Source: Parcubacteria group bacterium Greene0416_36 (GTDB taxonomy: Bacteria > Patescibacteriota > Patescibacteriia > VMEV01). From it: a DNA stretch of 64,000 bases. The translations under genes were made by a program, and so were the position numbers. The stretch covers positions 5,021 to 69,020 of the forward strand of contig VMEV01000004.1 of NCBI GenBank assembly GCA_007375725.1, given 5' to 3'. Of the stretch, positions 3,360 to 62,651 are shown piece after piece. How positions within the stretch are numbered: the stretch's first letter is position 1; the number at the start of each line of letters is the position of its first letter. The notes beneath the pieces were generated by a model. That model made no database searches, had not been told where the DNA came from, and worked only from the letters and a program-made list of their open reading frames with translations.

Positions 3360-3682
3360 ATAAAATTAGGGTTCAGGAATAAGGAGCTAGGATTCAGGGA
3401 ACAACAAAAAATCCAAGCTTAATTAAATAATTGTAACAAAAATACAGGAAAAAGGGAATTTGTGACCCAAAAAATAGTAGGGGCGCACCTGTGTGTGCGC
3501 CCTACCCTGTTTCCGTGCCCGACCCATAAATCCATCCCCGTTTTCCCCACCCTATCCCCACTCTGCACTTGATCGATTTTTTTATCTCGTGTATTATTGA
3601 TTTTAGGAGGACAGGGAAATTATTTCCGGCCTTCTTTGTTTTTTAGAAAAACAAGACAAAAAATCAATATTCGACACCGGTA

Positions 3683-4724: not shown

Positions 4725-4740
4725 ACACATCGCACCCGCA

Positions 4741-4785
4741 AAAAGCAGTAAGGGCGTATTGCAATACGCCCTTACTGCTTTTTGC
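4741..4785 (+). terminator. intrinsic terminator after clpP (GTAAGGGC palindrome family)
   Basis: AAAAGCAGTAAGGGCGTATTGCAATACGCCCTTACTGCTTTTTG: perfect palindrome flanked by an A-run and a T-run. Confidence 0.75.
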
Positions 4786-10219: not shown

Positions 10220-10223
10220 TTCC

Positions 10224-10266
10224 AAAAATGTAGGGGCAGGTGTGAAACCTGCTCCTACATTTTTTA
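10224..10266 (+). terminator. hairpin terminator after flippase gene (GTAGGGGC palindrome family)
   Basis: AAAAATGTAGGGGCAGGTGTGAAACCTGCTCCTACATTTTTT. Confidence 0.6.
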
Positions 10267-10446: not shown

Positions 10447-10488
10447 AAAAAGTGTAGGGGCACAGCGCGCTGTGCCCCTACACTTTTT
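10447..10488. terminator. palindromic hairpin AAAAGTGTAGGGGCACAGCGCGCTGTGCCCCTACACTTTT (bidirectional terminator-like)
   Basis: 40-bp perfect palindrome flanked by A and T runs. An identical 40-mer recurs at 52307-52346 inside an ORF. Confidence 0.55.
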
Positions 10489-33518: not shown

Positions 33519-33559
33519 CCTATACAAAACAGACGCAATAACTAAAAGTTTTCCCAACA

Positions 33560-33598
33560 AAAATGTAAGGGCACAGAATTCTGTGCCCTTACATTTTT
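33560..33598. terminator. palindromic terminator AAAAATGTAAGGGCACAGAATTCTGTGCCCTTACATTTTT serving tRNA-Ser (+) and the convergent helicase gene (-)
   Basis: Perfect palindrome with A/T-run flanks; overlaps the last codons and stop of the minus-strand helicase ORF. Confidence 0.65.
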
Positions 33599-35238
33599 GG
33601 CACCCCCTTCATCTCCAAAATCCTATCCACCCTAAACGCCCGATCTTCTTTGCGCTCCATGCAATACGCCTGCATGCCGATATATTTCTTGCCGAGATAG
33701 ACCATTTCGCCCACGCGGTGGGGGATGATTTCGCGGCAGGATTTTTCGTCCGAGCCTTTTAAATAGACAATTTTGAGACTTTTTTCATTATCAATCGCTT
33801 CCTGAATCATCCGGACTTTATCTTCCAAACTTAACAATTTCTCCGATTTTCCATATTGAAACTGTGTGACAAATTTCACCACATTCCAGTCGAGCCAGAT
33901 ATGTCGCTTGGCAACCGGCTTTTTGAGCACGAGGCCTTCAATCGAAGTGCACCGCGAGAGGGCCACGTACAGCTGGCCATGAGCGAAAGTGCCTCGGCCG
34001 ATATCCACTATCACGCGGTCGAAAGTTTTTCCCTGGCTTTTGTGAATGGTGACAGCCCACGCAAGTTTGAGCGGGTATTGATTGAATGATCCGATTTTCC
34101 GCGAATCCACATGTCCTTTTTCGAAAACATATTCGAACATGTCCCAGGTATGACGTCCCACAACCACTTCCTCCCCGCTGTTCAATTTCACGATAATGGC
34201 CGTATCTTTTTCACCCGCGTCATTTTCTTCGTCCACGAAATTGATGATCTGGCCGATGGTTCCATTGACCCAGCGGCCCATGATTTCATTGTTGAGCATC
34301 ATGATCTGCGAACCGATTTTAAGTTCGAGATTTTCGGTAGTGGGCAAAGCATTTCTCTCGAATTTACCGGAAACCCGGCTCGAAAAGGAATAATTTTTTC
34401 CAGCTAAACGTAACAATGCCGCCGCATTGATCTCATCCGCCGCGGCGTTAGTCGTGGTGAGATAGATATAAAATTCCTTTTTCGGAGGGACGAAATCAGG
34501 CTCGTATCTCTCGTTGAGTATTTGGAGATCCGCAGGCGTCGCCGAATTATTGCGAATCGAGTTCAGCAGTCTGACAAAGTCCGCGTCTTTCTGGCGATAG
34601 ACTTTGGACAGTTCCAGAAATTCCATATCCAAAGATTCAAACACTTTCGCACTGAAAAAATAAGGCGTCAGATAGGTGAGCGCGAAAATTTTCTTTTCCT
34701 CGGCACTCACTACCGGAGGCAATTGATAGAGGTCGCCGATAAAAACCATCTGCACCCCGCCAAACGGCAGCTTCCGTGTTTTCCCGTTGAGACGCAAAAA
34801 TTTATCCACGCAGTCGAGCAAATCCGCACGGACCATCGATATTTCATCGATCACGATCAAATCCAATTTCTCGTACATCTCCGGATCCGACACTTTTTTT
34901 ACCTTTGAAACCAAAATATTGGGCTTGAAATGAAAAAAGGAGTGAATGGTTTGCCCAGAAATATTAACCGCCGCCACCCCCGTGGGAGCCAGCACGACCA
35001 TCTCTTTTTTCGAATGCTCACGAAAATATTTGAGAAACGTCGATTTTCCGGTTCCCGCCTTCCCTGTCAAAAACAAATTCTTTCCCAACTCGACCATCCC
35101 GATCGCTTTCTTAAAATCGTCATTGAGCTCAATAGAATCTTTCGCTTGTATTTTAGCTTTCCTCGCCTTCTTCTCTTTCTTCATTTTTTTCGCCAGAGTC
35201 ATAAAAATTATGTAAACAAATACTCCATCTCTCCCCAA
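33589..35238 (-). CDS. Pif1/RecD-family ATP-dependent DNA helicase
   Basis: 549 aa. Walker A LTGKAGTGKST, Walker B LIVIDEISMV, motifs GDLYQLPPV and C-terminal AVTIHKSQG..VALSR (SF1B Pif1/RecD pattern). Likely true start at Met (MTLAKK) 13 codons inside. Confidence 0.7.
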   Translation of the reverse strand: MGRDGVFVYIIFMTLAKKMKKEKKARKAKIQAKDSIELNDDFKKAIGMVELGKNLFLTGKAGTGKSTFLKYFREHSKKEMVVLAPTGVAAVNISGQTIHSFFHFKPNILVSKVKKVSDPEMYEKLDLIVIDEISMVRADLLDCVDKFLRLNGKTRKLPFGGVQMVFIGDLYQLPPVVSAEEKKIFALTYLTPYFFSAKVFESLDMEFLELSKVYRQKDADFVRLLNSIRNNSATPADLQILNERYEPDFVPPKKEFYIYLTTTNAAADEINAAALLRLAGKNYSFSSRVSGKFERNALPTTENLELKIGSQIMMLNNEIMGRWVNGTIGQIINFVDEENDAGEKDTAIIVKLNSGEEVVVGRHTWDMFEYVFEKGHVDSRKIGSFNQYPLKLAWAVTIHKSQGKTFDRVIVDIGRGTFAHGQLYVALSRCTSIEGLVLKKPVAKRHIWLDWNVVKFVTQFQYGKSEKLLSLEDKVRMIQEAIDNEKSLKIVYLKGSDEKSCREIIPHRVGEMVYLGKKYIGMQAYCMERKEDRAFRVDRILEMKGVPKM

Positions 35239-40497: not shown

Positions 40498-40902
40498 CTA
40501 TACCAATTCCCCCGCCCCCGCTGCCAGGGCCAAGGCCACGATCAGATACGAAATAGACACCACGATAATACCGATAACCGCGTTCTTGATAATTTCCTTC
40601 GCCTCATCCACCTGCGACGAATTCCCAGCCGCCGTGATCCAACGGAAGCCGCCATATACTGAGTAGAGCACCGCCAAGGTGCCGATCACCCCCAAACACA
40701 ATTTCACAATGGCACCCACTCTGGTCGATAAAGTGGAAGTATCTCCTTTTGTACGCAAACCCGCTTGCTCTGAAGAAGCATCAAGCGTTTTCCCAATCGC
40801 TTGAATTCCGGTTTTGGGTTGGGCATAGGCAAACCCCATTGGCATCAAAAATACAGATGCCATCAAGATGAAACTCAAGAATATTTTTTTTAAAAAAGTC
40901 AT
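40498..40902 (-). CDS. TrbC/VirB2-like pilin paralog 1 (signal peptide + two-TM core)
   Basis: 134 aa. Signal peptide ending AYA-QP. Core LCLGVIGTLAVLYSVYGGFRWITAAGNSSQVDEAKEIIKNAVIGIIVVSISYLIV. Confidence 0.65.
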   Translation of the reverse strand: MTFLKKIFLSFILMASVFLMPMGFAYAQPKTGIQAIGKTLDASSEQAGLRTKGDTSTLSTRVGAIVKLCLGVIGTLAVLYSVYGGFRWITAAGNSSQVDEAKEIIKNAVIGIIVVSISYLIVALALAAGAGELV

Positions 40903-40911
40903 ATAATTTGA

Positions 40912-41331
40912 TTATTTACCGCCACTCGATAGCTGAATCGCCACCGCAATAATAATATAGGCAAATGTAACTATTGCCAAGCCAATGCAGGCATTTGTCA
41001 CGGTCTGTTTGGCCGCATCCACCTTCCCCGAATCCCCCCCCGCCGTAACCCACTGAAACCCGCCGTAGATGATGAAAATGACCGTCACCGTACCGATGAG
41101 CATGATGAAAAATTGGATGACTTCACCAAAACGAGAAGTGATATCTATGATAGTTTGACTGCGTCCACCCTGAGAGGTGACTTGAGACCCTTCAGTCATG
41201 CCACTCGAAGTTGTAGTCTCTAACAATTCCCCTGAGGCTTTTTGGAAACCCTTCTTTTCTTCCGCCAATACAAAAAGCGGACTGAGTAAAGCCATCAAAG
41301 AAAATAGAATTGGGAGAAGTGATCGAAACAT
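40912..41331 (-). CDS. TrbC/VirB2-like pilin paralog 2
   Basis: 139 aa. Signal peptide. Core IGTVTVIFIIYGGFQWVTAGGDSGKVDAAKQTVTNACIGLAIVTFAYIII. Confidence 0.65.
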   Translation of the reverse strand: MFRSLLPILFSLMALLSPLFVLAEEKKGFQKASGELLETTTSSGMTEGSQVTSQGGRSQTIIDITSRFGEVIQFFIMLIGTVTVIFIIYGGFQWVTAGGDSGKVDAAKQTVTNACIGLAIVTFAYIIIAVAIQLSSGGK

Positions 41332-41424
41332 AGGGGAAAAAGTTGGATAAAAAGACAGGAGATCCCCGATCCGCCTGACGGCTCTCGGGGATGATTTAAA
41401 TTTCGCTTGGGGGCTAAATTTAAA

Positions 41425-41853
41425 TCATTTGAATACCGTATCAATCGCACTCTTGAGCGCGAACGAGCTGATCGAATAGGCGGAAATCACGATAATAAGG
41501 CCGATCACGGCATTCTTAAGCCAAGCCTTAGCTTCGTCAATCTGAGCAGAATCACCTCCGGCAGTCATGTATTTCCATCCGGCCCAGAGGATGATCAAAG
41601 TCAGAACCGTCCCCAAAAAGGTAAGGATGATCTTGATGATATTGACCACCGTATCAATGAGATCCGCCTGGGTCTGGTCCTCACTAGTGGCGGCATATCC
41701 CGCCCCCGTCGCCACCTTCTCCGCGTCCAACACCGCCTGATCCAGAAAACGCTGAGCAGACACGGGAGCCAGAGGCAAAGCGACTAAGCCGAGACTGACT
41801 AGAAATAGAGATATTTTTCGAAACATAACAAAATAAATTAAATATACAGCCAA
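41425..41853 (-). CDS. TrbC/VirB2-like pilin paralog 3
   Basis: 142 aa. Core LGTVLTLIILWAGWKYMTAGGDSAQIDEAKAWLKNAVIGLIIVISAYSI. Confidence 0.65.
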   Translation of the reverse strand: MAVYLIYFVMFRKISLFLVSLGLVALPLAPVSAQRFLDQAVLDAEKVATGAGYAATSEDQTQADLIDTVVNIIKIILTFLGTVLTLIILWAGWKYMTAGGDSAQIDEAKAWLKNAVIGLIIVISAYSISSFALKSAIDTVFK

Positions 41854-41857
41854 ACAA

Positions 41858-41947
41858 CAAACCCATCCCCAACCCTTCCCTTAACAAGGAAGGGAGAACT
41901 CGCAAATGCCTCCCCTGTTAAAGGGAGGTTAGGTGGAGTTTGTTGCT
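41858..41947 (+). repeat. variant copy of the composite repeat (TTAACAAGGAAGGG subtype) inside the pilin array
   Basis: CAACAAACCCATCCCCAACCCTTCCCTTAACAAGGAAGGGAG...CCTCCCCTGTTAAAGGGAGGTTAGGTGGAGTTTGTTG. Same architecture with diverged hairpin sequences. A second copy of this subtype is at 61688-61790. Confidence 0.7.
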
Positions 41948-42450
41948 TACCCATTCAAAAACTCACTCGTCCTAAGCGAATTGAGCACAAAACTGGTAAT
42001 CAGCCAAGCAAATGAGACAATCAGGACTCCCATGACGGCATTGAAAATTAGGGCCTTTGCCTTGGAAACATCTTCCTCATTTCCTCCGGCCAAAAACCAA
42101 GTATAACCCGCATAGATCACAACTAGAAGCAAGACTGTACCGAGTGCGCTGAGCAAAGTCTGGAGTATCTGCCCGATATAAATATAAATATTGACCCTGC
42201 CGGTATTTTCTTTGTATCGAGGATCAATCGCGGGACCCAAATTTCCTAAGGCCTCACGAGTTCCTGCCAATCCAGGACGGTGTTGGCCGCTGGGTCCCAC
42301 AACCGGGTTCAAAGCACCTCCCATATCAAACAATCCAGGATCTTCCGCTTTGCCTATAGGAGCAAAAGACAATACCAACGAAAAAACAATCATACAAACT
42401 GCCACTATTCTTTTTACTAGCATTCCGGTTTTATTCATATTCGTATTCAA
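41947..42450 (-). CDS. TrbC/VirB2-like pilin paralog 4
   Basis: 167 aa. Core LSALGTVLLLVVIYAGYTWFLAGGNEEDVSKAKALIFNAVMGVLIVSFAWLI. Track start overlaps the upstream paralog by 20 nt, so the true start may be an internal Met (MNKTGML or MLVKRIV). Confidence 0.6.
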   Translation of the reverse strand: MNTNMNKTGMLVKRIVAVCMIVFSLVLSFAPIGKAEDPGLFDMGGALNPVVGPSGQHRPGLAGTREALGNLGPAIDPRYKENTGRVNIYIYIGQILQTLLSALGTVLLLVVIYAGYTWFLAGGNEEDVSKAKALIFNAVMGVLIVSFAWLITSFVLNSLRTSEFLNG

Positions 42451-42910
42451 TAGTGGATTGCTTGATCGAACTCAACACAAAGGCCGTAATGCCCCAAGAC
42501 AACATAATGATCATAAGGCCGATAAATCCATTGATCAGCCATTTTTTTGCGGTCTCTACCTGATCCGCATTGCCCCCAGCCATAGCCCAGAGATAACCGG
42601 CGTAGAGAGTCATGGATAAAAATATAATTCCCAGAAACCCCAAAGCAATGCGCACGATCTGCACGATCAATTCAGTGAGGCCCGCTTTTCCTTCCTTCCG
42701 AATATCATACGACCCTCCGGCGATAAACTTCATGCGGCTGCGCGATAATTCATTTGACCCCGCCCTGCCTTCCGGATTTTGGGTGATGGATTCAGCATCG
42801 CCTGGGGTGACCGTTTTACCTGTTCCCGACGGCTGAGCCATAGCTGGAGTAGAAAAACCACCCCAACCCATAGCGACCGCCAAGAATAATAAAACTATTT
42901 TCCGAATCAT
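42431..42910 (-). CDS. TrbC/VirB2-like pilin paralog 5
   Basis: 159 aa. Core LGFLGIIFLSMTLYAGYLWAMAGGNADQVETAKKWLINGFIGLMIIMLSWGI. Confidence 0.65.
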   Translation of the reverse strand: MIRKIVLLFLAVAMGWGGFSTPAMAQPSGTGKTVTPGDAESITQNPEGRAGSNELSRSRMKFIAGGSYDIRKEGKAGLTELIVQIVRIALGFLGIIFLSMTLYAGYLWAMAGGNADQVETAKKWLINGFIGLMIIMLSWGITAFVLSSIKQSTIEYEYE

Positions 42911-42915
42911 AAAAA

Positions 42916-43341
42916 TTAATCAAACAAACTCGTAGGGATATCCACGGGATTGAGAGAGGCCACAATGAAATCAGTGATGAAATACGCGGCGGTAATAAGA
43001 ATCATACCGATGATGCCATTGGCAATCCATTTTCTCGCTTGATCTACCTGATCCGTATTGCCTCCAGCAGTCAGCCATAGAAACCCCGCGTAAATCACCA
43101 CGGCAAGCAAAATAAAACCCACAAAGGAGAGAATCGTCTTGATGATAAAACCCAAGGTCAGGTTCAGCTGGCGTTCCGATTCCGCTGCATCTGCCACCTT
43201 TTTTCCATAGCCTACCTGGGTCACGACTTGTACCCCGCCAAAGGGATCCGGCTTATCTTCCGCGAGCACAGGAATCGCAAAAAATCCGGCAAACAAAACC
43301 GCGGTAAACCCCATCAATAACATTTTCCTAAAAAAAATCAT
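42916..43341 (-). CDS. TrbC/VirB2-like pilin paralog 6
   Basis: 141 aa. Core LSFVGFILLAVVIYAGFLWLTAGGNTDQVDQARKWIANGIIGMILITAAYFI. Confidence 0.65.
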   Translation of the reverse strand: MIFFRKMLLMGFTAVLFAGFFAIPVLAEDKPDPFGGVQVVTQVGYGKKVADAAESERQLNLTLGFIIKTILSFVGFILLAVVIYAGFLWLTAGGNTDQVDQARKWIANGIIGMILITAAYFITDFIVASLNPVDIPTSLFD

Positions 43342-43353
43342 AAATTTCTACCT

Positions 43354-43398
43354 GTCATTGCGAGCCACCGCATTCTAGCGGTGGCGTGGCAATCTCAT
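43354..43398 (-). promoter_or_regulatory. conserved leader hairpin element (minus strand: ATGAGATTGCCACG-[GCCACCGC..GCGGTGGC]-TCGCAATGACA) directly upstream of pilin paralog 6
   Basis: Shares its flanks with the 46993-47035 element. The inner stem differs there but remains complementary (compensatory change). Confidence 0.4.
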
Positions 43399-43408
43399 GA
43401 ATAAACCC

Positions 43409-43840
43409 CTACCCCCTTTGCAAAAAAGCTCCGATCAAAAATCCCACAATCAAATAAGCTGTGGCGATAATAAAAATACCGATAGTCCCATTGGTCACCC
43501 ATTTCTTCGCCTGATCCACCTGATCGGAATTCCCTCCGGCCGTGAGCCACAGGAACCCTGCGTAAATGATCACCAAAAGCAAAATCACGCCCACCACTCG
43601 CAATATCCAAAATACCACCACACCCACAATGAAAAAAAAAGTGAATTCTTCCCTCCCCGCCTGATAATCCGTATCACCAAATCCCTCTCGAGCGATATCT
43701 TGTAGATATCCAGCTCCAGTAGCCCCAGGATCATTTCTACCTCCAGTTCCAGGTTCTACCGCAAAAACTATTACAGGAATAAATAACAAAAAAAAGCAGA
43801 TAAGTAATAAATTCAATTGATATATAATTTTTTTCCACAT
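43409..43840 (-). CDS. TrbC/VirB2-like pilin paralog 7
   Basis: 143 aa. Core VVGVILLLVIIYAGFLWLTAGGNSDQVDQAKKWVTNGTIGIFIIATAYLI. Confidence 0.65.
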   Translation of the reverse strand: MWKKIIYQLNLLLICFFLLFIPVIVFAVEPGTGGRNDPGATGAGYLQDIAREGFGDTDYQAGREEFTFFFIVGVVVFWILRVVGVILLLVIIYAGFLWLTAGGNSDQVDQAKKWVTNGTIGIFIIATAYLIVGFLIGAFLQRG

Positions 43841-43845
43841 AAAAA

Positions 43846-44271
43846 TTATGAAGCAATACGAGTCAGAGACTCAATAAACCCAGCTATAACATAGGAGGCC
43901 CCGACAATAATCGCGCCAATAGTACAATTAGTGATGATCGTTTTTGCTTTCTCCACTTGATCAGAATTACCTCCAGCAGTAAGCCACAGAATACCTGAGT
44001 AGATAATAAGAATCAACAATATTACTCCAACTAAAGACAAAAGTATTTTTACATAGCGAATAATTGTGCTGACCAAAATTAAATTGACAACTCCTCGAGT
44101 CTGCAATCCTTCTGTTGTTACTTTTATACCGCTAGTATTAACACTAGTATTGCTTAAAGCCGCATCCAACAACTTCCCTCCGCGTACTTTATCTTTCGTT
44201 GTATCTTGAGCAAAAACAAAACTAGGAACCAACAAAATCGACAGTAATAATGCAATCAAAATCTTTCTCAT
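43846..44271 (-). CDS. TrbC/VirB2-like pilin paralog 8
   Basis: 141 aa. Core LVGVILLILIIYSGILWLTAGGNSDQVEKAKTIITNCTIGAIIVGASYVI. Confidence 0.65.
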   Translation of the reverse strand: MRKILIALLLSILLVPSFVFAQDTTKDKVRGGKLLDAALSNTSVNTSGIKVTTEGLQTRGVVNLILVSTIIRYVKILLSLVGVILLILIIYSGILWLTAGGNSDQVEKAKTIITNCTIGAIIVGASYVIAGFIESLTRIAS

Positions 44272-44278
44272 ACGATTT

Positions 44279-44692
44279 TTAACTTGTAGTTTGAGTCGCG
44301 AGCAAGATAAAGGCCGTTATCGCATAGGCCGTGCCAATAATCAGGGCACCCATAAAGGCATTGAATATAAGCGTCCGCGCCTCGGCGGCCTTGTCCGTAT
44401 TGCCCCCAGCCGTGAGCCACAAAAATCCGCCGTAGATAATGATGATCAAAATCACGAGACCTAGAAACTGCAGGGCCTGCTCAATCAATTTACCAATACG
44501 CTGGGCTAACCCAGTGGCAGTGGCATCATCTTTTTTTTCTGACAAAGAAGCTTTTTCCATGGTTGTACTAAAAAAACCATCTCCCTTCATAATAGTCTCC
44601 GAAACCGAAGCCGATACAAAACCAACATTGACCCCGAATAACATCACCAGAGCCATGGAACTTAAAAATAATTTTTTGAAAAATGAAGGCAT
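44279..44692 (-). CDS. TrbC/VirB2-like pilin paralog 9
   Basis: 137 aa. Core LGLVILIIIIYGGFLWLTAGGNTDKAAEARTLIFNAFMGALIIGTAYAI. Confidence 0.65.
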   Translation of the reverse strand: MPSFFKKLFLSSMALVMLFGVNVGFVSASVSETIMKGDGFFSTTMEKASLSEKKDDATATGLAQRIGKLIEQALQFLGLVILIIIIYGGFLWLTAGGNTDKAAEARTLIFNAFMGALIIGTAYAITAFILLATQTTS

Positions 44693-44697
44693 AAAGT

Positions 44698-44934
44698 TTA
44701 AAATTTTCCTAAAGCTTTTAGAAATTCTTCAACCGAGATTTTCGATTGTTTCAATACACCCATCAACATTCCCCTTTTTAAATCCTTGCTATGATAAGGC
44801 AAAATAACTCTCCTCGTGGCATCTAACGAATGTATCAATTTAATATGGCTTCCCTTCTGCGAAATCACTTTAAATCCCAAACTGAGGAGCAATTGTAACA
44901 CTTCCTTTGCCTTCAAAATCGGAATAATACTCAT
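44698..44934 (-). CDS. hicA: HicA-family toxin (mRNA interferase)
   Basis: 78 aa. KAKEVLQLLLSLGFKVISQKGSHIKLIH matches the HicA/YcfA K..L...GF....KGSH..H core. Immediately downstream of hicB. Confidence 0.65.
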   Translation of the reverse strand: MSIIPILKAKEVLQLLLSLGFKVISQKGSHIKLIHSLDATRRVILPYHSKDLKRGMLMGVLKQSKISVEEFLKALGKF

Positions 44935-44937
44935 ACA

Positions 44938-45138
44938 TTACCTTGAGGTCTCCAAAGCAAATTCTATTGCCTCTCTTGCCATATACTTTGCCTCTACCAG
45001 ACTATCTCCCCCAGTCACAATTTCAGGAATTTTCATCACTCGAACAATATAGCCTTTTTCATCATTGTTCCTTTCAAAACGAGTATCAAAAACCCCTTTT
45101 TTCGTCTTCAATCTGAATTTTTTTATTTTTCTTAACAT
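44938..45138 (-). CDS. hicB: HicB-family antitoxin (UPF0150/HicB N-terminal-domain-like)
   Basis: Start chosen at internal Met (MLRKIKK...), giving 66 aa. GYIVRVMKIPEIVTGGDSLVEAKYMAREAIEFALE is a typical HicB RNase-H-fold antitoxin segment. The longer track ORF (to 45294) would overlap the upstream pilin gene on the same strand. Confidence 0.55.
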   Translation of the reverse strand: MLRKIKKFRLKTKKGVFDTRFERNNDEKGYIVRVMKIPEIVTGGDSLVEAKYMAREAIEFALETSR

Positions 45139-45140
45139 AT

Positions 45141-45587
45141 TTATAAAGGTGTAATCAAAGCCGTGGTAAGACCCTTTGTGATGAAGCTTATCAAGACATA
45201 CGAACTGCCGCAAATCACAATCGCAATCACCGAGTTCACCAATATCCTCTTCCCTTCCCCCGCCTGATCCGAATTCCCCGCCGCCGTAGTCCACAAATAC
45301 CCTCCGTAGACCACATATCCCAATGCCACGGTACCAATGATGGACAGGGCAATGCCCATGTAGCGGCCGATTTGATTGACTACCACTAAACGAGCATCGG
45401 AGAGAACGTCTGTTCCTTCTTCTCTTGATATAGTCTCATCTAAATTTGTCTGCGATAAACCACCACCTTCATTGTCTGCTCCTAACATTTTATTGACAAG
45501 TGTAGGATTAAGTTGTGCATACAATAAAATAGGAAGACAAAATACTAAACTTACAGAAACAGATAAAATCGAAACAATTCGCTTCAT
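45141..45587 (-). CDS. TrbC/VirB2-like pilin paralog 10
   Basis: 148 aa. Core IALSIIGTVALGYVVYGGYLWTTAAGNSDQAGEGKRILVNSVIAIVICGSSYVLI. Confidence 0.65.
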   Translation of the reverse strand: MKRIVSILSVSVSLVFCLPILLYAQLNPTLVNKMLGADNEGGGLSQTNLDETISREEGTDVLSDARLVVVNQIGRYMGIALSIIGTVALGYVVYGGYLWTTAAGNSDQAGEGKRILVNSVIAIVICGSSYVLISFITKGLTTALITPL

Positions 45588-45593
45588 AAATTT

Positions 45594-45983
45594 CTATCCA
45601 GCTAAAGCCAATACTACAAAATTAGTCAGTGTATACGCACCCATTAAAATCACCATCCCAATCACCGCGCTGGAGATAATTTCCTTGGACTCATCTATTT
45701 TCGCCTGATCGCCTTTTGCCGTGAGCCACAGAAATCCAGCATATACTACATAACCAAGAGCAATCACACCCAAAAACCCATAGATAACAGACAAAACCTG
45801 GCCGATATAGACGGCGGGGCTTTTGGCACCTTCTGCGGTTATCTCATATCCGGATTTCTCAGCAAATATGTTCAGTTTCCCAACAGGATCTGGGTTTTCG
45901 GCGGCCAATACCCAAAAAGGCAACATTAAAAATATTACACTCGATAAAAAAATAAAAGTTTTTTGAAAAAATGAGTGTCTCAT
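45594..45983 (-). CDS. TrbC/VirB2-like pilin paralog 11
   Basis: 129 aa. Core GFLGVIALGYVVYAGFLWLTAKGDQAKIDESKEIISSAVIGMVILMGAYTL. Confidence 0.65.
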   Translation of the reverse strand: MRHSFFQKTFIFLSSVIFLMLPFWVLAAENPDPVGKLNIFAEKSGYEITAEGAKSPAVYIGQVLSVIYGFLGVIALGYVVYAGFLWLTAKGDQAKIDESKEIISSAVIGMVILMGAYTLTNFVVLALAG

Positions 45984-45986
45984 AAT

Positions 45987-46409
45987 TTATTTAACTTCTA
46001 CACCCGTAATCACATTGGTACCCAGCTGACTGATCGCGAAATTGGCTAGGGAATAAGCCCCAAAAATAATCACAAGGCCGATACCCCCATACAATAAAAT
46101 CTTCTTGGCAGTATCAACCTTCGAGGAATCTCCCGCGGCCGTGAGATACAAAAATCCGGCATAAATGATAATAAGCAATGCAAAAATACCTAGGATACCA
46201 AGGATAGATTGGATAATACCTCCGGAATATTGAATGAAGGCTTCTTGTTCCACCTTGCCTCCTCCTTCAAAGGCTTGCGAAGCCTTTCCTGTTTCCATTA
46301 GCCCCGTTGACAATGGATCAGCAGCCAAAATATTCGAACCCAAACCAAAAGACAGGACTCCGACTAGGATTCCCGACAATAAAATTTTATTTCGGAGAAA
46401 ATTTCGCAT
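45987..46409 (-). CDS. TrbC/VirB2-like pilin paralog 12
   Basis: 140 aa. Core LGILGIFALLIIIYAGFLYLTAAGDSSKVDTAKKILLYGGIGLVIIFGAYSL. Confidence 0.65.
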   Translation of the reverse strand: MRNFLRNKILLSGILVGVLSFGLGSNILAADPLSTGLMETGKASQAFEGGGKVEQEAFIQYSGGIIQSILGILGIFALLIIIYAGFLYLTAAGDSSKVDTAKKILLYGGIGLVIIFGAYSLANFAISQLGTNVITGVEVK

Positions 46410-46453
46410 ATAAAATCTTCGTTTGAAGAAGTAGAAAAAAGATATCCCTATTT

Positions 46454-46487
46454 GTCTGTAGGGGCGCAGCGCGCTGCGCCCCTACAG
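46454..46487. repeat. GTAGGGGC-family palindrome TCTGTAGGGGCGCAGCGCGCTGCGCCCCTACAGA in an intergenic gap of the pilin array
   Basis: Perfect 34-bp palindrome. Unlike other family members it lacks flanking A/T runs. Confidence 0.6.
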
Positions 46488-46583
46488 ACAACATGTCCTT
46501 TTTCTGCTTCTTCCTCCGAGCCCTTCAGCTCGGAGAGAAGAAAAGATTATAGATATAACAATTAGCTAGCTTATTGCTATCTC

Positions 46584-46982
46584 CTATCCTTGTAAACCTG
46601 TAGCAACGGTGAGTTGCTGGAGCACGAAAGTCGTGATCGCAAACGCGGACAAAATGATCACCAAACCGATAATACCGGCCTGAATGAGCTTTTTAGCTTC
46701 GTCTGTCTTATCGCTGGAACCTCCGGCAGTCATCCATTTGAAACCACCCATGAGGATGATCACCACGGCGACAGTACCCAAAAATCCCATGATAATGCGG
46801 ATCAAAGCGGCAATCGTTTCACGTGGATCGCGCTGTCCGAGTCCGGTATTTTTCTGAAAATTGATGCCGAATACGTCCTCAGCTGCGCCCACAGCCACGG
46901 GGACCGCCAGCATATTGAGAGACATAATCACCGACATGATTCCTACACCTAATTTTTTCATCATAATATCACCCCCTTTCAT
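46584..46982 (-). CDS. TrbC/VirB2-like pilin paralog 13
   Basis: 132 aa. Core MGFLGTVAVVIILMGGFKWMTAGGSSDKTDEAKKLIQAGIIGLVIILSAFAI. Confidence 0.65.
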   Translation of the reverse strand: MKGGDIMMKKLGVGIMSVIMSLNMLAVPVAVGAAEDVFGINFQKNTGLGQRDPRETIAALIRIIMGFLGTVAVVIILMGGFKWMTAGGSSDKTDEAKKLIQAGIIGLVIILSAFAITTFVLQQLTVATGLQG

Positions 46983-46992
46983 TTTTTATAGT

Positions 46993-47035
46993 GTCATTGA
47001 GAGTCCTGCGTTTTAGCAGGACGTGGCAATCTCAT
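46993..47035 (-). promoter_or_regulatory. conserved leader hairpin element (minus strand: ATGAGATTGCCACG-[TCCTGC..GCAGGA]-CTCTCAATGACA) upstream of pilin paralog 13
   Basis: Second copy of the 43354 element. The inner stem sequence differs but remains complementary. Confidence 0.4.
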
Positions 47036-47097
47036 ATAAAACATCAATACATTATTAGCCTAAGTATAGAAAAAAGACGAATTTTTGCAAATCTTTC

Positions 47098-47466
47098 TTA
47101 CTTGGCACCGATGCTGGCAAGCACATAACTGAGAATCGCGTAACTGCCAAACGCCACGATAATCCCGATCACGGCCCATACCAAGGTATCTATCCCCTTC
47201 TTCACCTTCTCCGAATTACCCCCCGAAGTCAAAAAATAAAACCCTCCGATGATAAAAAACACGAGCGACAATATACCCACAAGCCCCAGCATAGCCTGCA
47301 CTACTTGACCAACCAATTGGGGAACAGATGTTATACCCTCGAGAGGATTTGGCAATTGATTTTTTGGATCTGGTTTAGCTGTCATCAAAAGAGGCAATGA
47401 CCAGACAATCAAAGATGAATATAATATTCTAAAAAACGATTTCATATTTATAAATATCTTAATCAT
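47098..47466 (-). CDS. TrbC/VirB2-like pilin paralog 14
   Basis: 122 aa. Core LGLVGILSLVFFIIGGFYFLTSGGNSEKVKKGIDTLVWAVIGIIVAFGSYAI. Confidence 0.6.
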   Translation of the reverse strand: MIKIFINMKSFFRILYSSLIVWSLPLLMTAKPDPKNQLPNPLEGITSVPQLVGQVVQAMLGLVGILSLVFFIIGGFYFLTSGGNSEKVKKGIDTLVWAVIGIIVAFGSYAILSYVLASIGAK

Positions 47467-49443: not shown

Positions 49444-49524
49444 CAACAAATCCCCCTTAGTCCCCCTTTGACAAGGGGGAAACAACGCCCTCCCTTGTCA
49501 AAGGGAGGGTTGGGGAGGGATTTA
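49444..49524 (-). repeat. composite double-hairpin palindromic repeat, copy 8 (inverted orientation)
   Basis: CAACAAATCCCCCTTAGTCCCCCTTTGACAAGGGGGAAACAACGCCCTCCCTTGTCAAAGGGAGGGTTGGGGAGGGATTT between galU and the SBP gene. Confidence 0.8.
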
Positions 49525-50401: not shown

Positions 50402-50502
50402 AGATATTGTACCCTCCCTATTTGCCTGTTTAAAAAAAATAAAATGACAAGCATTGATAAAATATTAGCATAGAAGCCCCTAAAAATTCAAAGAAAATTC
50501 CC

Positions 50503-50542
50503 AAAAACGTAAGGGCACGGTGCACCGTGCCCTTACGTTTTT
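50503..50542. terminator. palindromic terminator AAAAACGTAAGGGCACGGTGCACCGTGCCCTTACGTTTTT at the 3' end of the 50533..51762 gene
   Basis: Perfect palindrome flanked by A and T runs. Identical core to the dnaN terminator at 62590-62631. The gene's TAA stop lies inside the GTAAGG arm. Confidence 0.65.
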
Positions 50543-51762
50543 GAGGTCATGCCCAATCCATACACCACCCAAAACAAAACCGCCAAATCATTTTTGAAAT
50601 ACGCCACATCGACCATCCCGTGGGCCAATAAAACAAGCATCATGATAAAAACAGGGAGGATAAATGGACTCTTTTCGGCACGAATAGATGGCCAGCAAAA
50701 AACACAAAAAAAGACGACCAGCAAAATAAAAGAAACCATGCCCAAGAGGCCCATCTCAATCCAAAAATTAAAAAATAACTGATGGGGGTAGAGTAAAATT
50801 TCTGTATGCTCGGGGAGTTTGTATTTTTCATAATTACGGGAAAAGCCTCCGAGACCAAAACCCTCAATCGGATGATCGGCAATCATCTTCCAAGAGCCGA
50901 TCCACAATTTATGACGCACATCCGTGGACGGATCCACCGATATCCGCGCTCCCGCAAAAACAAGAAACACAATCAAAGCCGGAATGAATAGAAAATAATT
51001 TTTTGAAAAACGATTTTTTTCACGCATCAAAATAAATGCACCCAGAGAACACATCCCCGCCATCAAGGCCAATGCTCCGCCGTCAGAACCCGATAAAAAA
51101 AGAGCAGCCGAAGTAAACGCAAGCACGGTTATTTTCCAGAAGCGATCCAAAAAAAACGAAGAAAACAAAGGGATGTTCCGGGCAAATAAAACAAGATAGG
51201 CTCCGAGAATCGGGGTGACGACGAGAGACAGAGCATTGGGATAGGGATAGAACGAAGTGATTCGCAGGTCTCCCTGATTCCACGGAGCGGGAATCCAGCT
51301 AAAGGCGTATTGCAAGAGTCCATACAGAGCCAAATAAAAAGACAAAATTCCGAGTGTAATAAACACTCCGCGAATATTTTTTTCGGTTCGAATCGTTTTT
51401 ATAAAAACCCAGAAAAACAAAATAGGCTCTATAAAATAGGCTTTCCATTGACCCAGGGCCGCGCGCAAATCCGGACTCAAAATCACAGCCACAGTTGCGG
51501 AAAGTAAAAATAGCAGGACCGGAAAGGTAAGGGCGTATTGCGATACGCCCTTACCTTTCCGGTCAAGTAGAAATCTTTCCCGAATCAAAAACACACAAAA
51601 TAAAACCAGAATCATCGACTCCAGGAGCGTCATGGGGATATTAAACATCGAGAAACGAATTTGGTATGCGGGCAAAAACAAGAGAATCAAATAAATGCCC
51701 CAGGAAATTTTTCGGGAGGAAAGATAAGCGAATAAAGATAGAAATAGGATGAGAATAAACAT
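50533..51762 (-). CDS. O-antigen-ligase-like polytopic membrane protein carrying an in-frame palindromic insertion
   Basis: 409 aa, at least 10 TM helices. Wzy_C-like segment (SGSDGGALALMAGMCSLGAFIL). Residues KGKGVSQYALTFP are encoded by the palindrome at 51521-51560. Confidence 0.5.
   Translation of the reverse strand: MFILILFLSLFAYLSSRKISWGIYLILLFLPAYQIRFSMFNIPMTLLESMILVLFCVFLIRERFLLDRKGKGVSQYALTFPVLLFLLSATVAVILSPDLRAALGQWKAYFIEPILFFWVFIKTIRTEKNIRGVFITLGILSFYLALYGLLQYAFSWIPAPWNQGDLRITSFYPYPNALSLVVTPILGAYLVLFARNIPLFSSFFLDRFWKITVLAFTSAALFLSGSDGGALALMAGMCSLGAFILMREKNRFSKNYFLFIPALIVFLVFAGARISVDPSTDVRHKLWIGSWKMIADHPIEGFGLGGFSRNYEKYKLPEHTEILLYPHQLFFNFWIEMGLLGMVSFILLVVFFCVFCWPSIRAEKSPFILPVFIMMLVLLAHGMVDVAYFKNDLAVLFWVVYGLGMTSKT
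51521..51560. repeat. GTAAGGGC-family palindrome inside the 50533..51762 ORF
   Basis: GGAAAGGTAAGGGCGTATTGCGATACGCCCTTACCTTTCC. Read in frame as KGKGVSQYALTFP without interrupting the ORF. Confidence 0.7.
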
Positions 51763-51842
51763 AAATCCCCCTCAATCCCCCTTTGACAAGGGGGAGGTCG
51801 CTACGCCCTCCCTTGTCAAAGGGAGGGTTGGGGAGGGATTTA
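51762..51842 (-). repeat. composite double-hairpin palindromic repeat, copy 9 (inverted orientation)
   Basis: AAATCCCCCTCAATCCCCCTTTGACAAGGGGGAGGTCGCTACGCCCTCCCTTGTCAAAGGGAGGGTTGGGGAGGGATTT. Provides the last codons and stop of the upstream ORF 51772..53208 and abuts the start codon of the 50533..51762 gene. Confidence 0.8.
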
Positions 51843-53208
51843 TTCGCCACACCCACCCCACTCCAAATAAAACCACCCCCGCCGGCACAAAATATGTCAG
51901 CAAAAATAGAGCCGACATAATCAAATAGGCCCCGAGATACTTTTCCTCCAAAAGCAAAAAAGGCAGAATAATCAAAGCGTACCAAGGTTGGACCCAGGTG
52001 GCCACCAGAAACAAAAAGAAAAAGAAAAATGCGGAGCCGAATAAATACGGATCTATTTTCCCGCGAATCATTCGAACAAAAATAACGATGGAAACGACAA
52101 TCCATAACCCCAAACACAAAACTCTCCATAGGTTAAAAGTCTCTGGAACCAGCCAAAATCCGATCAAAGATCCGGACCCAAAATAAAAAGGATAGTCCAT
52201 ACGACCAGCTTGAATCAAAACACTGGAGAGAAGAGCGGGCCAGTGATCCCAATCCCAGAATGGGGCCCAGGCCACGAGCGTTACAATGATTCCAGCTACC
52301 AGCGCCAAAAGTGTAGGGGCACAGCGCGCTGTGCCCCTACACTTTTGGCCCTCCCGCCACCACAAAAAAAACCAAGCCGGAATAAAAAATACGGCCCAAT
52401 ATTTTATCCAGAAAGCGATAGCCAAGAACACAAAAGAAAAAACAGTAAGGGCGTATTGCGATACGCCCTTACTGTTTTTTCTGGACAAAAAATAAAACGA
52501 AGCCAGGAGAAAAAATAAAAGAGCGGCTTCATTGTGACCACTAGAAATTCCTTCCAGGAGAATCAGAGGATTCCACAGAAACAAAACCAATGAACGGGAG
52601 GCTAATCCCGCTTTCTTTTCCAAAATCCGAAACAAAATCAATCCCGATCCCGCGATAAAAAAAATATTGGCCAGGCGAAATAAAAATAAATTAAGAGGCA
52701 GATCGGTTCCGGCAAGACGAGTAATCATCATCGAGAACGAAGTCCAAACCGGACCATATGGAGTGACTTGATCCCTCCAATTAGCAATCGTAGTCTCCAA
52801 AAAGGGATCGGATCTAAAAAAATTAAAATGATAAAGATATGGATTAAGCTCATATCCATTGCCAATCCGCGCGCTAAAAATATAATTATATAGATCTTGC
52901 GACAGAACCGGAGGAATCAAAATGAGAATAAAAGAAAACAAAAAAAATCCCGCCCAAATTATTTTTAAAAAAGCAGGAGCTTGATTTAAATTAGGATGAG
53001 CATTACCCAGCAGAGATTTCGCGAAAAAAATAAAACTAATACCAGCCAAAATCATCCAAAATAATAAAAGCCAGTAAGCAAGGCCTGATGAAGGAGGCGT
53101 GGTTCCCCCGGAAGTGAAGTTTAATAAGCCAATCAAAAAAAACGCTGAATACAAAACACAAAGATAAAACAGATACGGTTTAACTTTTAACAAAGAGTCA
53201 GTAAACAT
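51772..53208 (-). CDS. large polytopic membrane protein (GT-C-like glycosyltransferase fold, tentative) with two in-frame palindromic insertions
   Basis: 478 aa, about 13 TM helices. Insertion-derived peptides GQKCRGTARCAPTLL (52307-52346) and KNSKGVSQYALTV (52437-52480). C-terminal 24 codons are read from the composite repeat. Confidence 0.45.
   Translation of the reverse strand: MFTDSLLKVKPYLFYLCVLYSAFFLIGLLNFTSGGTTPPSSGLAYWLLLFWMILAGISFIFFAKSLLGNAHPNLNQAPAFLKIIWAGFFLFSFILILIPPVLSQDLYNYIFSARIGNGYELNPYLYHFNFFRSDPFLETTIANWRDQVTPYGPVWTSFSMMITRLAGTDLPLNLFLFRLANIFFIAGSGLILFRILEKKAGLASRSLVLFLWNPLILLEGISSGHNEAALLFFLLASFYFLSRKNSKGVSQYALTVFSFVFLAIAFWIKYWAVFFIPAWFFLWWREGQKCRGTARCAPTLLALVAGIIVTLVAWAPFWDWDHWPALLSSVLIQAGRMDYPFYFGSGSLIGFWLVPETFNLWRVLCLGLWIVVSIVIFVRMIRGKIDPYLFGSAFFFFFLFLVATWVQPWYALIILPFLLLEEKYLGAYLIMSALFLLTYFVPAGVVLFGVGWVWRINPSPTLPLTREGVATSPLSKGD
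52307..52346. repeat. GTAGGGGC-family palindrome inside ORF 51772..53208 (identical to the intergenic copy at 10447-10488)
   Basis: AAAAGTGTAGGGGCACAGCGCGCTGTGCCCCTACACTTTT, translated in frame as KCRGTARCAPTLL. Confidence 0.7.
52437..52480. repeat. GTAAGGGC-family palindrome inside ORF 51772..53208
   Basis: AAAACAGTAAGGGCGTATTGCGATACGCCCTTACTGTTTTTT, translated in frame as KGVSQYALT. Same core as the 51521-51560 copy and the clpP terminator. Confidence 0.7.
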
Positions 53209-60871: not shown

Positions 60872-61618
60872 TCAAGAAAAATCAACATTGATATACAAAT
60901 TGTCGACATCGTCCTCATTGTCCAAAGCCTCCAGCAATGCGCCGAGAGACTGCATCGCCGAAGGAGAAATCGTGATTTTCTCTTTGGCGATATATTCGAT
61001 ATTGAACTCTTTGATCGCGATTTTCTTTCCTTCCAGCGCCGCACGAAAGGAATTCATATCCTCAACCAGAACCGTAATTTTGACATGCGCCGCGCCGTCG
61101 ATCTCTAGGTATTCAATATTTTCCGCTCCGGCACCGATCAAAAACAACTCGCGGTCATCGGCGGACATGGAATCAAAAGCCGAAGTGAGCACCAAAGCAA
61201 CTCCTCGGCGCACAAACATCCATGATACGCTATTGGCCGCCGCCAAATTTCCGCTATTTTTACTCATGATGACCTTGAGATTAGTGAGAGTCCGATTGCG
61301 ATTATCGGTAATGGTCTCGACCAAAATCGCACTGCCTTCGGGTCCAAAAACTTCGTACATGACCCCTTCCATGACCGTTCCGTCATTCAGTTCTCCAGTT
61401 CCCTTCTTGATAGCCTTCTCGATCGTATCTTTGGGCATGCTCATGGCTTTTGCCTTATCGACCGCCATCCTCAATTTGAAATTAGTATCCAAATCTTTGC
61501 CCAATTCTTTGGCGGCCATAGTAATATTGCGGCTGAGTTTGGTGAAGAGCGAACTGCGCTTGGCATCCGCCGCGCCTTTTTTGACTTGTATATTGTGCCA
61601 TTTGGAATGTCCAGACAT
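60872..61618 (-). CDS. yebC: YebC/PmpR-family transcriptional regulator
   Basis: Start chosen at MSGHSKWHNIQVKKGAADAKR (canonical YebC N-terminus); track ORF extends 16 codons further upstream. Confidence 0.9.
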   Translation of the reverse strand: MSGHSKWHNIQVKKGAADAKRSSLFTKLSRNITMAAKELGKDLDTNFKLRMAVDKAKAMSMPKDTIEKAIKKGTGELNDGTVMEGVMYEVFGPEGSAILVETITDNRNRTLTNLKVIMSKNSGNLAAANSVSWMFVRRGVALVLTSAFDSMSADDRELFLIGAGAENIEYLEIDGAAHVKITVLVEDMNSFRAALEGKKIAIKEFNIEYIAKEKITISPSAMQSLGALLEALDNEDDVDNLYINVDFS

Positions 61619-61687
61619 ACAATTGAATCGCTTAATGAATACAAATGAACATACCAAAATTATCAAATTTAGCGTTTTTTTTCAATG

Positions 61688-61790
61688 GTAGAAAGCAACA
61701 AACCCATCCCCAGCCCTTCCCTTAACAAGGAAGGGGGAAACAGCCTCCCACCCCTGATCACAGGAAAGGTTAGAAAAAGATTTGTTGCTT
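61688..61790 (+). repeat. variant copy of the composite repeat (TTAACAAGGAAGGG subtype)
   Basis: GCAACAAACCCATCCCCAGCCCTTCCCTTAACAAGGAAGGGGGAAACAGCCTCCCACCCCTGATCACAGGAAAGGTTAGAAAAAGATTTGTTGC; related to the 41858 copy. Confidence 0.65.
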
Positions 61791-61798
61791 TCTAAAAA

Positions 61799-61825
61799 TA
61801 AAAAAGCAGGTATATTACCTGCTTT
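61799..61825 (-). terminator. intrinsic terminator (minus strand) downstream of the small 61830..62021 ORF
   Basis: Minus strand reads GAAAGCAGGTAATATACCTGCTTTTTTATTTTT: hairpin with a strong T-run. Confidence 0.6.
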
Positions 61826-61829
61826 CACA

Positions 61830-62021
61830 TCATAAAGCCAAAATTATGAAGTATAACTCTATGATATGCTCGAGAAGAAAAAAAATGCCCGCTGTAAAAA
61901 GCCAGCGGGCAAGGCGGGCACGAATATCATCGCCGTCAAATACTTCGCTGGCAAGTATGACGGCGACAAAAATTAATCTGACCGGAATAGCCAGAAGAAT
62001 TTTCAAAAATTCTATTTTCAT
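61830..62021 (-). CDS. small hydrophobic protein (63 aa, two predicted TM helices)
   Basis: ORF MKIEFLKILLAIPVRLIFVAVILASEVF... ends immediately upstream of a good minus-strand terminator; otherwise unsupported. Confidence 0.3.
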   Translation of the reverse strand: MKIEFLKILLAIPVRLIFVAVILASEVFDGDDIRARLARWLFTAGIFFLLEHIIELYFIILAL

Positions 62022-62589
62022 CGGATCTTCCCTTCCCTAAAAATAGAATTTAAAAATCAAAATCCAAGTCAAAGACAGTCTAGAGCAGAAGCCCTAGTAC
62101 CGTCTCTGACTTAGAACCTGATTCCTGGAAATAACGACCACCCTACGCCCCGCCAAAAGGCGGGGCTGCGATCTGGCACGGCAAGCTTTTTATTGTAGAG
62201 AAAACACAAGGTTTTTCAACCGGAGAATAATCCCCATTGTCCCCAAGTTATCCATCACAAAAAATACAGAGCGATCTAACATAAAAAAATCCTATCCACT
62301 TTGGGAGAGAGAAAAAAAAGCATGTCTTTCCGAAGAAAGTGCTATTGGCATCCCTAGAATTGGAAATTTCTTAGCGCGAAGCCAAAAAATATCACGATTC
62401 ATAAGGATGTATTGGAACCCGAAAGTCCCAATAAAAAATCTCTCTCCTCCAAACTAAACAGGATTATGAATAATGTCAACAAAACACTAAGTACTTAAGG
62501 ATCTTATAAGGATATCAGTTCCAATTGTATTTGTCAATAGTACACATACTCTAGGTATTTTGGCCTCATTATTTTATCGAGCTCCATGA

Positions 62590-62631
62590 CAAAACAAGTA
62601 AGGGCACGGTGCACCGTGCCCTTACTTGTTT
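62590..62631. terminator. palindromic terminator AAAACAAGTAAGGGCACGGTGCACCGTGCCCTTACTTGTTTT after dnaN
   Basis: Perfect palindrome with A/T-run flanks; core identical to the 50503 copy. Confidence 0.7.
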
Positions 62632-62651
62632 TGCGCCTGTTTTTATGGATG

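Follow-up and report, generated by a model that had tools for sequence, protein, structure and literature searches.

Palindromic repeats at the locus

We analysed a 64,000-nucleotide (nt) stretch of the genome of Parcubacteria group bacterium Greene0416_36, a bacterium of the Candidate Phyla Radiation (CPR) (assembly GCA_007375725.1, contig VMEV01000004.1, positions 5,021 to 69,020; hereafter the window, with positions counted from its first letter), in which a short palindrome recurs at gene ends and, three times, within the reading frames of two adjacent genes for polytopic membrane proteins. We propose, with a probability of about 0.7, that the palindromes of this contig are repetitive extragenic palindrome (REP) elements of the double-foot format, mostly kept as bidirectional terminators and tolerated in frame at three sites. 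The two host genes are the last of a minus-strand run comprising yebC, ruvC, glycogen synthase, GH57, PBP1A, a 519-amino-acid (aa) membrane protein, gene 2 and gene 1, and this run ends at a hairpin at 50502-50543.

50533..51762, minus strand: gene 1, O-antigen-ligase family (Wzy_C) polytopic membrane protein, 409 aa
51772..53208, minus strand: gene 2, MptA/B-like (PF26314) polytopic glycosyltransferase-type membrane protein, 478 aa

The window contains 21 occurrences of the 8-mer GTARGGGC where 1.78 would be expected, and the largest value among dinucleotide-preserving shuffles was 5. Twenty of these occurrences are palindrome arms set at a fixed 12-nt centre, or the lone intact arm of an imperfect copy; the remaining one (60471, minus strand) is an isolated chance match within a gene. 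The family consensus is GTA(A/G)GGGC-N12-GCCC(C/T)TAC, a 28-nt core made up of a foot GTA(A/G), GGGC, the 12-nt centre, GCCC and a mirror foot (C/T)TAC. Eleven copies lie in the window and a twelfth elsewhere on the 73.9-kb contig, a density of about one per 6 kb.

3470..3507: degenerate copy (GTAGGGGC...GCCCTAC, one-base bulge) between a divergent Wzz-like gene (minus strand) and clpP (plus strand); U-tract on the minus strand only; -23 kcal/mol, z -4.3
4738..4785: perfect 48-nt palindrome, 13 nt past the clpP stop codon; core GTAAGGGC GTATTGCAATAC GCCCTTAC, flanks GCAAAAAGCA / TGCTTTTTGC; -38 kcal/mol, z -11.3
10224..10264: imperfect copy (GTAGGGGC...GCTCCTAC), 4 nt past the stop codon of a Polysacc_synt flippase gene (plus strand); its mismatch is a G-U pair in plus-strand RNA; -28.3 kcal/mol
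10447..10488: perfect 42-nt palindrome, intergenic; 40 nt identical to intragenic 52307-52346
33558..33599: perfect 42-nt palindrome at the convergence of tRNA-Ser and a PIF1-like helicase gene, 38 nt past the tRNA (33434-33520, plus strand) and overlapping the stop codon of the helicase gene (33589..35238, minus strand); -31 kcal/mol on both strands
46452..46491: perfect 40-nt palindrome flanked by two T4SS-pilin genes, without A/T tracts; -36.5 kcal/mol
50502..50543: perfect 42-nt palindrome ending the long minus-strand operon; core identical to that of the 62598 copy; -37.4 kcal/mol
51517..51564, minus strand: intragenic copy in gene 1, perfect 48-nt palindrome; -42.1 kcal/mol
52301..52352, minus strand: copy B, intragenic in gene 2, one outer-arm mismatch, perfect over 52304-52349; -45.8 kcal/mol
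52435..52482, minus strand: copy A, intragenic in gene 2, perfect 48-nt palindrome; -33.6 kcal/mol
62590..62633: perfect 44-nt palindrome, 18 nt past the dnaN (minus strand) stop codon; -37.4 kcal/mol
Outside the window, same contig: twelfth copy, between convergent DAGK and YidC genes

The 12-nt centres vary from copy to copy yet stay self-complementary, bar a loop of 0-4 nt; the hairpin, not its sequence, is therefore the target of selection or mechanism. Right after the foot, GGG...CCC gives three consecutive G-C pairs at the stem bottom in 10 of the 12 copies, the exceptions being a G-U pair in the imperfect copy at 10230 and a bulge in the copy at 3477. Feet are of the type GTAG...CTAC in five copies, two of them imperfect, and GTAA...TTAC in seven. 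Palindromy extends past the 28-nt core by 6-16 further perfectly complementary bases in all ten perfect copies, usually as C-A(4-6)-N(1-3) left of the core with the mirror T-tract on its right. These flanks are mirror-image complements, not direct repeats, and the direct target-site duplication of MITEs (miniature inverted-repeat transposable elements) was not found. Folded as RNA, each copy forms one hairpin, with energies of -28 to -46 kcal/mol and z-scores of -6 to -11; the degenerate 3470 copy is weaker.

Several copies are identical over long stretches. The 40-mer at 52307 matches 10448-10487 exactly, and identical 28-nt cores occur at 50509 and 62598 and again at 51527 and 52445. Recent copying of these sequences, by whatever route, is apparent from the DNA identity to distant intergenic copies. 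A preliminary description of this stretch, drawn from its letters, had reported such coordinates and identities, including those of 52307 with an intergenic copy and of the 50503 and 62590 cores, and rechecking of the sequence agrees with them. It had also proposed recent spread or gene conversion, and the identical distant copies likewise point to a family that is real and recently homogenised.

In-frame copies in two membrane-protein genes

All three intragenic copies fall within 0.97 kb. The copy at 51517..51564 is translated in gene 1 as DRKGKGVSQYALTFPV (residues 67-82), between two hydrophobic segments, and in gene 2 copy A is translated as RKNSKGVSQYALTVFS (residues 243-258) and copy B as GQKCRGTARCAPTLLA (residues 287-302). 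Hydropathy places each of the three encoded segments between hydrophobic stretches, and an AlphaFold2 (AF2) model of gene 2 (predicted template modelling score, pTM, 0.79) has loops at 243-250 (A) and 288-292 (B), each followed by a helix. Because invariant residues common to homologues flank each palindrome on both sides, genes 1 and 2 are single genes, not fragments. The earlier placement of three in-frame copies within predicted loops of two adjacent membrane-protein genes agrees with these translations. The 51527 and 52445 cores, 918 nt apart and in the same orientation, are both identical and asymmetric, which suggests that one may have been copied locally from the other.

Assemblies of other sequencing runs in Logan span the 52445 copy at 100% identity (L127, L128), and a further Logan contig (L249), present in three samples, holds the complete 409-aa gene 1 with the 51527 copy, again at 100% identity. 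These observations argue against an assembly artefact at two of the three intragenic sites. Logan contigs end inside the exact repeats longer than 31 nt at 52313, 50509 and 62598, as expected of true repeats in a k-mer graph; the break at 52313 fits a true repeat at the third intragenic site.

The preliminary description had regarded the intragenic palindromes as insertions. No homologue with more than 37% identity to the gene 1 or gene 2 protein was found among 5.8 billion proteins, and loop lengths were compared with distant homologues, 12 for site A of gene 2 and 27 for gene 1. At site A, N226 and K269 are 43 residues apart versus 34-35 in 11 of the 12 homologues, a gain of 8-9 residues, and here the claim of insertion is supported. 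It finds no such support in gene 1, where the loop from L66 to A102 (36 residues) equals the median of the homologues (range 28-62), or at site B, where the region varies from 40 to 188 residues among homologues. The gain at site A roughly matches the 28-nt core in size and falls short of the 48-nt palindrome, and the RKN and VFS residues flanking it resemble the homologues' own sequence. This pattern suggests that the palindromic flanks at site A may have been converted in place, not added.

Two Falkowbacteria-type Wzy_C homologues (P0045 and P0046) carry, in frame, a different imperfect palindrome of about 90 nt (GTCATTGCGAG...CTCGCAATGAC; L250 1203-1294 and L251 about 262-380). It occupies the same loop between transmembrane helices 2 and 3 (TM2-TM3) as the gene 1 palindrome, and thus this Wzy_C loop has accepted palindromic repeats more than once. 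A second Wzy_C-family gene in the window (38145-39527, plus strand, 460 aa) is without a copy of either repeat family found on the contig. For gene 1 itself, NCBI annotates a start at Met39 (371 aa); alignment with the 27 homologues favours the start that gives 409 aa.

Gene-end placement and terminator anatomy

Coding sequence makes up about 88% of the window, and 8 of its 11 copies lie within the 12% that is non-coding. Six of these eight begin at most 40 nt from a 3' end or overlap a stop codon, and the TAA of the GTAAGGGC arm is the actual stop codon of both gene 1 (50533-50535) and the PIF1-like helicase gene. Flanked by an A-tract and, opposite it, a T-tract, a copy yields a very stable GC-rich hairpin followed by a U-tract in the RNA of either strand. 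This anatomy is present on both strands at 4738, 10224, 10447, 33558, 50502, 62590 and the twelfth copy, on one strand only at 3470, and absent at 46452. Judged from anatomy and position, the gene-end copies most likely act as bidirectional intrinsic terminators. Terminator-like copies with A/T flanks at 3' ends were part of the preliminary description, with which most positions and the two-strand anatomy agree. A built-in terminator scan draws the A/T tracts into the stem, and its results at palindrome sites are uninformative alone.

Between the palindromes at 10224 and 10447 lies a perfect match to a sigma-70-type promoter (10426-10399, minus strand; TTGACA-16-TATAAT, 12/12). It aims at the 10264-10224 hairpin and U-tract and would yield a transcript of about 130-170 nt without a convincing open reading frame (ORF). 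No Rfam family matched the predicted transcript near 10224-10488, and a permissive search of 10150-10650 returned only sub-threshold noise. At gathering thresholds Rfam identified two tRNAs only, and a permissive search of 61600-62700 again gave sub-threshold noise. The gene-poor segment downstream of dnaN (61691-62590) contains two more terminator-like hairpins (61911-61886 and 61826-61802), which are outside the palindrome family. Three DnaA-box-like 9-mers, each with one mismatch, lie on the minus strand of the dnaA-dnaN spacer (63828-63971), a likely oriC; none occurs in 61691-62590, and the cluster does not adjoin the 62590 copy.

The same format in other genomes

In a sample of one genome per GTDB species, the pattern GTARGGGC-N12-GCCCYTAC gave at least 129 matches in at least 120 loci. 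The phyla among the matches listed include Cyanobacteria, Chloroflexota, Bacteroidota, Planctomycetota, Omnitrophota, Patescibacteria and many more. The centres of 88 of the 129 listed matches are fully self-complementary (chance 1/4096), and in another 32 five of the six positions pair. The same centres reappear in different phyla, and GTATTGCAATAC and GCAGCGCGCTGC are common to window copies and listed matches. Two features set the contig apart from this sample: the GTAA foot, found at about 10% in cross-phylum samples versus 7 of the 12 contig copies, and complementarity beyond the core, which is zero in 100 of the 129 listed matches, near chance.

All-against-all clustering of ORFs from the 120 loci listed identified an IS200-like Y1 transposase (Pfam Y1_Tnp) as the only specific recurring neighbour; the largest cluster consisted of generic response-regulator and kinase genes. 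At four loci from distant phyla (L021 2668-3434, L036 7456-7998, L098 3420-3770 and L108 1-282) the palindrome lies inside the Y1_Tnp gene, each time right past the HuH motif and in the frame xRGxxxxAPT, and at L021 a second copy stands directly upstream of the gene. A homologue search from one of these proteins retrieved a very large family named 'REP element-mobilizing transposase RayT' or 'REP-associated tyrosine transposase' (RAYT). The motif [RK]G....A[PL]T is present in 89 of the 120 best RayT homologues, a count possibly inflated because candidates were gathered by words in common with a query containing RGTMHRAPT. Its central dipeptides, MH, LQ, AR or VH, correspond exactly to the dipeptides encodable by self-complementary codon pairs, and thus the hairpin rather than the peptide appears to be conserved in RayT genes. 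Back-translated as ACGGTGCACCGT, the VH centre is that of the window copies at 50509 and 62598.

Reading of translations identified further in-frame palindromes elsewhere, in a glutamate synthase (L035), in PurL (L050) and in a polytopic membrane protein (L028). Copies with A/T flanks are widespread in metagenome contigs of about 43% GC; the scan for them revealed no RAYT linkage and no relatives of the source organism. Very long perfect palindromes in metagenome contigs (20-46 nt per arm), several of them centred on an A/T-flanked double-foot REP, were discarded, being best read as assembly fold-backs: the case at L174 3720 runs exactly to the contig end, and L239 4623, L209 4138 and others are similar. 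Assembler fold-backs at REP hairpins call for caution when long palindromes are counted in metagenomes.

A second repeat family and neighbouring genes

Another repeat family on the contig, unrelated to the first and about 75-85 nt long, has nine copies in both orientations. Those in the window lie at 3931-3975, 6573-6656, 7213-7255, 20498-20545, 38045-38086, 40422-40466, 49464-49505 and 51772-51845, and one more lies beyond it. Each consists of two small hairpins (CCCTT-TGAC-AAGGG) inverted around a variable spacer of 8-14 nt. The ends are imperfectly inverted (AACAACAAATCCCCC... / ...GGGAGGGATTTGTTG), a layout resembling that of a REP doublet forming hairpin (REPIN) or a MITE. No copy was found in about 240 loci from other genomes and metagenomes. 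One copy sits between the two membrane-protein genes.

51772..51845: second-family copy (CCCTTTGACAAGGG...CCCTTGTCAAAGGG) where gene 2 meets gene 1

The final ~22 residues of gene 2 (..INPSPTLPLTREGVATSPLSKGD) and its stop codon come from this copy, and the gene 2 tail (441-478) has a predicted local distance difference test (pLDDT) score below 50 in the AF2 model. The end of the copy (GAGGGGGATTT, minus strand), directly upstream of the gene 1 ATG, is Shine-Dalgarno-like.

Some 14 small paralogous minus-strand genes occupy 40498-47466. The preliminary description had spoken of a pilin array here; the two members tested are T4SS_pilin proteins (PF18895, TrbC/VirB2-like) rather than type IV pilins. 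An IS66-family DDE transposase gene (1053-2510, minus strand) has the same context in independent Logan assemblies. Further downstream, past the left edge of the window, a strain variant has genes of 339 versus 328 aa and of 526 versus 461 aa (L124 versus L123).

Interpretation

We take the palindromes to be most likely double-foot REPs: their 8-nt foot and stem bottom and their 12-nt spacing match a repeat family found in many phyla and physically linked to RayT genes. Elsewhere this format is the cognate repeat of TnpA_REP/RAYT subclass 2.4 tyrosine (HuH-Y1) transposases. On the contig, most copies would have been kept at sites that benefit from a terminator or are not harmed by one, which are the 3' ends of genes, of tRNAs and of operons, convergent pairs among them. 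Three would have reached cytoplasmic-type loops of genes 1 and 2, at the distal end of a long cell-envelope operon, either by landing there or through copying, whether by recombination or by template switching. They may persist there because the reading frame stays open, the length change is a multiple of three and the peptide suits its local context. The A-tract would supply Lys, Asn and Gln codons, the core a short polar loop, and the T-tract the Phe, Leu and Val codons that start the next helix. Such codons are apt for a cytoplasmic loop that leads into a transmembrane helix, which may plausibly explain why membrane proteins tolerate the copies; the in-frame copies are probably tolerated passengers, not functional protein segments.

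Several points weigh against this interpretation. A tblastn search of the 73.9-kb contig found no RAYT gene, only noise matches. The feet are GTAA/TTAC in 7 of 12 copies and so fall outside the GT[AG]G of double-foot REPs at the fourth base, and every perfect copy extends by 6-16 nt of palindromic flank, a property not described for REPs and one for which cut-and-paste of a single fixed unit would not account. Homologue spacing favours insertion at one of the three sites, with a gain of 8-9 residues that is smaller than the 16-codon palindrome. The 46452 copy is without a U-tract, and the 3470 copy lies upstream of genes.

Some of the same evidence would suit a home-grown terminator family without a transposase, which owes its similarity and spread to recombination, gene conversion or replication template switching. 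The likeness of GTAGGGGC to REPs would then be an inherited relic or irrelevant, and the intragenic copies would stem from ectopic conversion at Lys-codon/Phe-codon microhomologies. A contig with no RAYT found on it speaks for such an origin, as do flanks that each perfect copy possesses as its own, unlike generic double-foot REPs, and two identical asymmetric cores (51527 and 52445) so near each other in one orientation. With a gain close to core size and homologue-like RKN and VFS, site A also fits conversion better than fixed-unit insertion. We nevertheless consider this explanation unlikely: independent convergence on GTA(G/A)GGGC-N12 is implausible given a cross-phylum family tied to RayT genes, and the RAYT search covered about 74 kb of genome. 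A broader reading, which we hold to be rather improbable, joins several roles: a double-foot REP turned into the standard bidirectional terminator of this lineage, in-frame copies acting as translation-dependent attenuators, and colonisation of loops. Under it, A- and U-tracts would have joined a symmetrically growing palindrome, for example by intrastrand template switching at the hairpin, and spread would perhaps have proceeded without a resident RAYT. If so, different palindromic families in the Wzy_C loop of different CPR lineages would mark a general route by which membrane-protein loops are remodelled in streamlined genomes.

Two further explanations assign the repeats other functions. 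The intragenic copies could be functional attenuators that end distal operon transcription when translation is uncoupled, or ribosome pause sites at loops during membrane insertion, in either case kept by selection. Copy A (52435-52482) has full terminator anatomy on the mRNA strand, a 22-bp stem of -33.6 kcal/mol followed by UGUUUUUUCUUUU (a U6 tract); all three copies are perfect palindromes and sit close together, within 0.97 kb, in the two final genes of the long yebC-to-Wzy_C operon. However, young copies are equally expected to be perfectly palindromic, the U-tracts are weak in two of the three (CUUUCC and ACUUUUGG), homologues have no conserved hairpin at the corresponding positions, and intragenic REPs of other species are generally seen as tolerated passengers (PMC3733652, PMC6006769); we regard selection of this kind as very unlikely. 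A signal resembling a DNA uptake sequence, an 8-mer often present in inverted terminator-forming pairs as in Neisseria or Haemophilus, could be imagined in CPR bacteria, which depend on uptake, and the 8-mer is strongly over-represented, with pairs at gene ends and a few within genes. The unit, however, is the palindrome and not the 8-mer, because 20 of the 21 arms are paired at a fixed 12-nt spacing. Occurrence of the palindrome in many unrelated phyla is at odds with a species-specific signal, and the family is linked to RayT genes, which leaves an uptake role scarcely credible.

If the palindromes are double-foot REPs, as we favour, they bring a well-studied class of selfish or domesticated repeats, that of REPs with their RAYT transposases, to a CPR genome that is streamlined and ultra-small. 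In the annotation of such genomes, the hairpins mark likely transcript ends, give stop codons and short peptides to real genes, and break short-read assemblies.

Comparison with known systems

Double-foot REPs of TnpA_REP subclass 2.4, with a 5' GT[AG]G and a 3' C[TC]AC, have three G-C pairs at the stem bottom and occur in frame within the tnpA_REP genes of that subclass (Quentin et al. 2018, PMC6006769). This subclass is RAYT group 4 of Bertels et al. 2017 (PMC5581495), who found the 16-mers flanking group 4 genes at about 14 occurrences per replicon. The contig palindromes agree with them in a foot repeated as its reverse complement at the 3' end (GTAG in five of the 12 copies), the three G-C pairs and the variable, self-complementary centre. 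They are likewise dispersed, multi-copy and mostly extragenic, with a 28-nt core (of the 20-40 bp class) and possible in-frame copies, and the identical 28-nt format lies inside RayT genes of other phyla. Besides the feet and flanks weighed above, they differ in their density of about one copy per 6 kb, against about 14 occurrences per replicon, and in their CPR host.

GTAG-tagged REPs gather downstream of genes, supply stop codons through their termini, and are found in frame within genes, where a copy encodes about 10-30 residues and one gene may carry two; the short RPE-4 and RPE-6 were classed as CGTC-tagged REPs, not as GTAG-tagged ones (Di Nocera et al. 2013, PMC3733652). Like GTAG-tagged REPs, the contig copies are short and GC-rich, lie between unidirectional or convergent genes near 3' ends, supply stop codons and include intragenic in-frame copies, two of them in one gene. 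In contrast, the tag of those elements is unpaired and at one end, whereas here it is paired and at both ends, and the hosts here are envelope-biosynthesis membrane proteins rather than the DNA replication and repair genes stressed there.

Rickettsia palindromic elements (RPEs) share with the contig copies the tolerance of palindromic repeats in frame within protein-coding genes. RPE-1-type elements measure about 100-150 bp. The unit described here is 28-48 nt long, has the GTAG-REP format and belongs to another host lineage, a description that sets it apart. The likeness to RPEs drawn in the preliminary description thus gives way to a more precise match, the double-foot GTAG REPs of subclass 2.4 (PMC6006769, PMC3733652). 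Integron attC sites were also considered and rejected: the conserved ends depart from RYYYAAC/GTTRRRY, and the genes alongside have housekeeping functions. Repeated terminator families include the TRIT motifs of Mycobacterium tuberculosis and the paired DNA uptake sequences of Neisseria. As in those families, a conserved, repeated palindrome probably also serves as a two-way intrinsic terminator at the ends of many genes; unlike them, the contig family has other sequences and a RAYT-linked REP core, and single arms are essentially absent.

Literature searches by the sequence strings GTAGGGGC and GCCCCTAC returned unrelated papers only, and the literature searched made no mention of REPs and CPR together. 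The family itself is not specific to this organism: it matches a known REP class, and intragenic in-frame REPs have already been published. What is specific to this lineage is the GTAA foot in 7 of 12 copies, the palindromic A/T-tract flanks and the clustering of three copies in two envelope genes, and these features provide a concrete system for understanding how REPs become terminators and enter coding regions.

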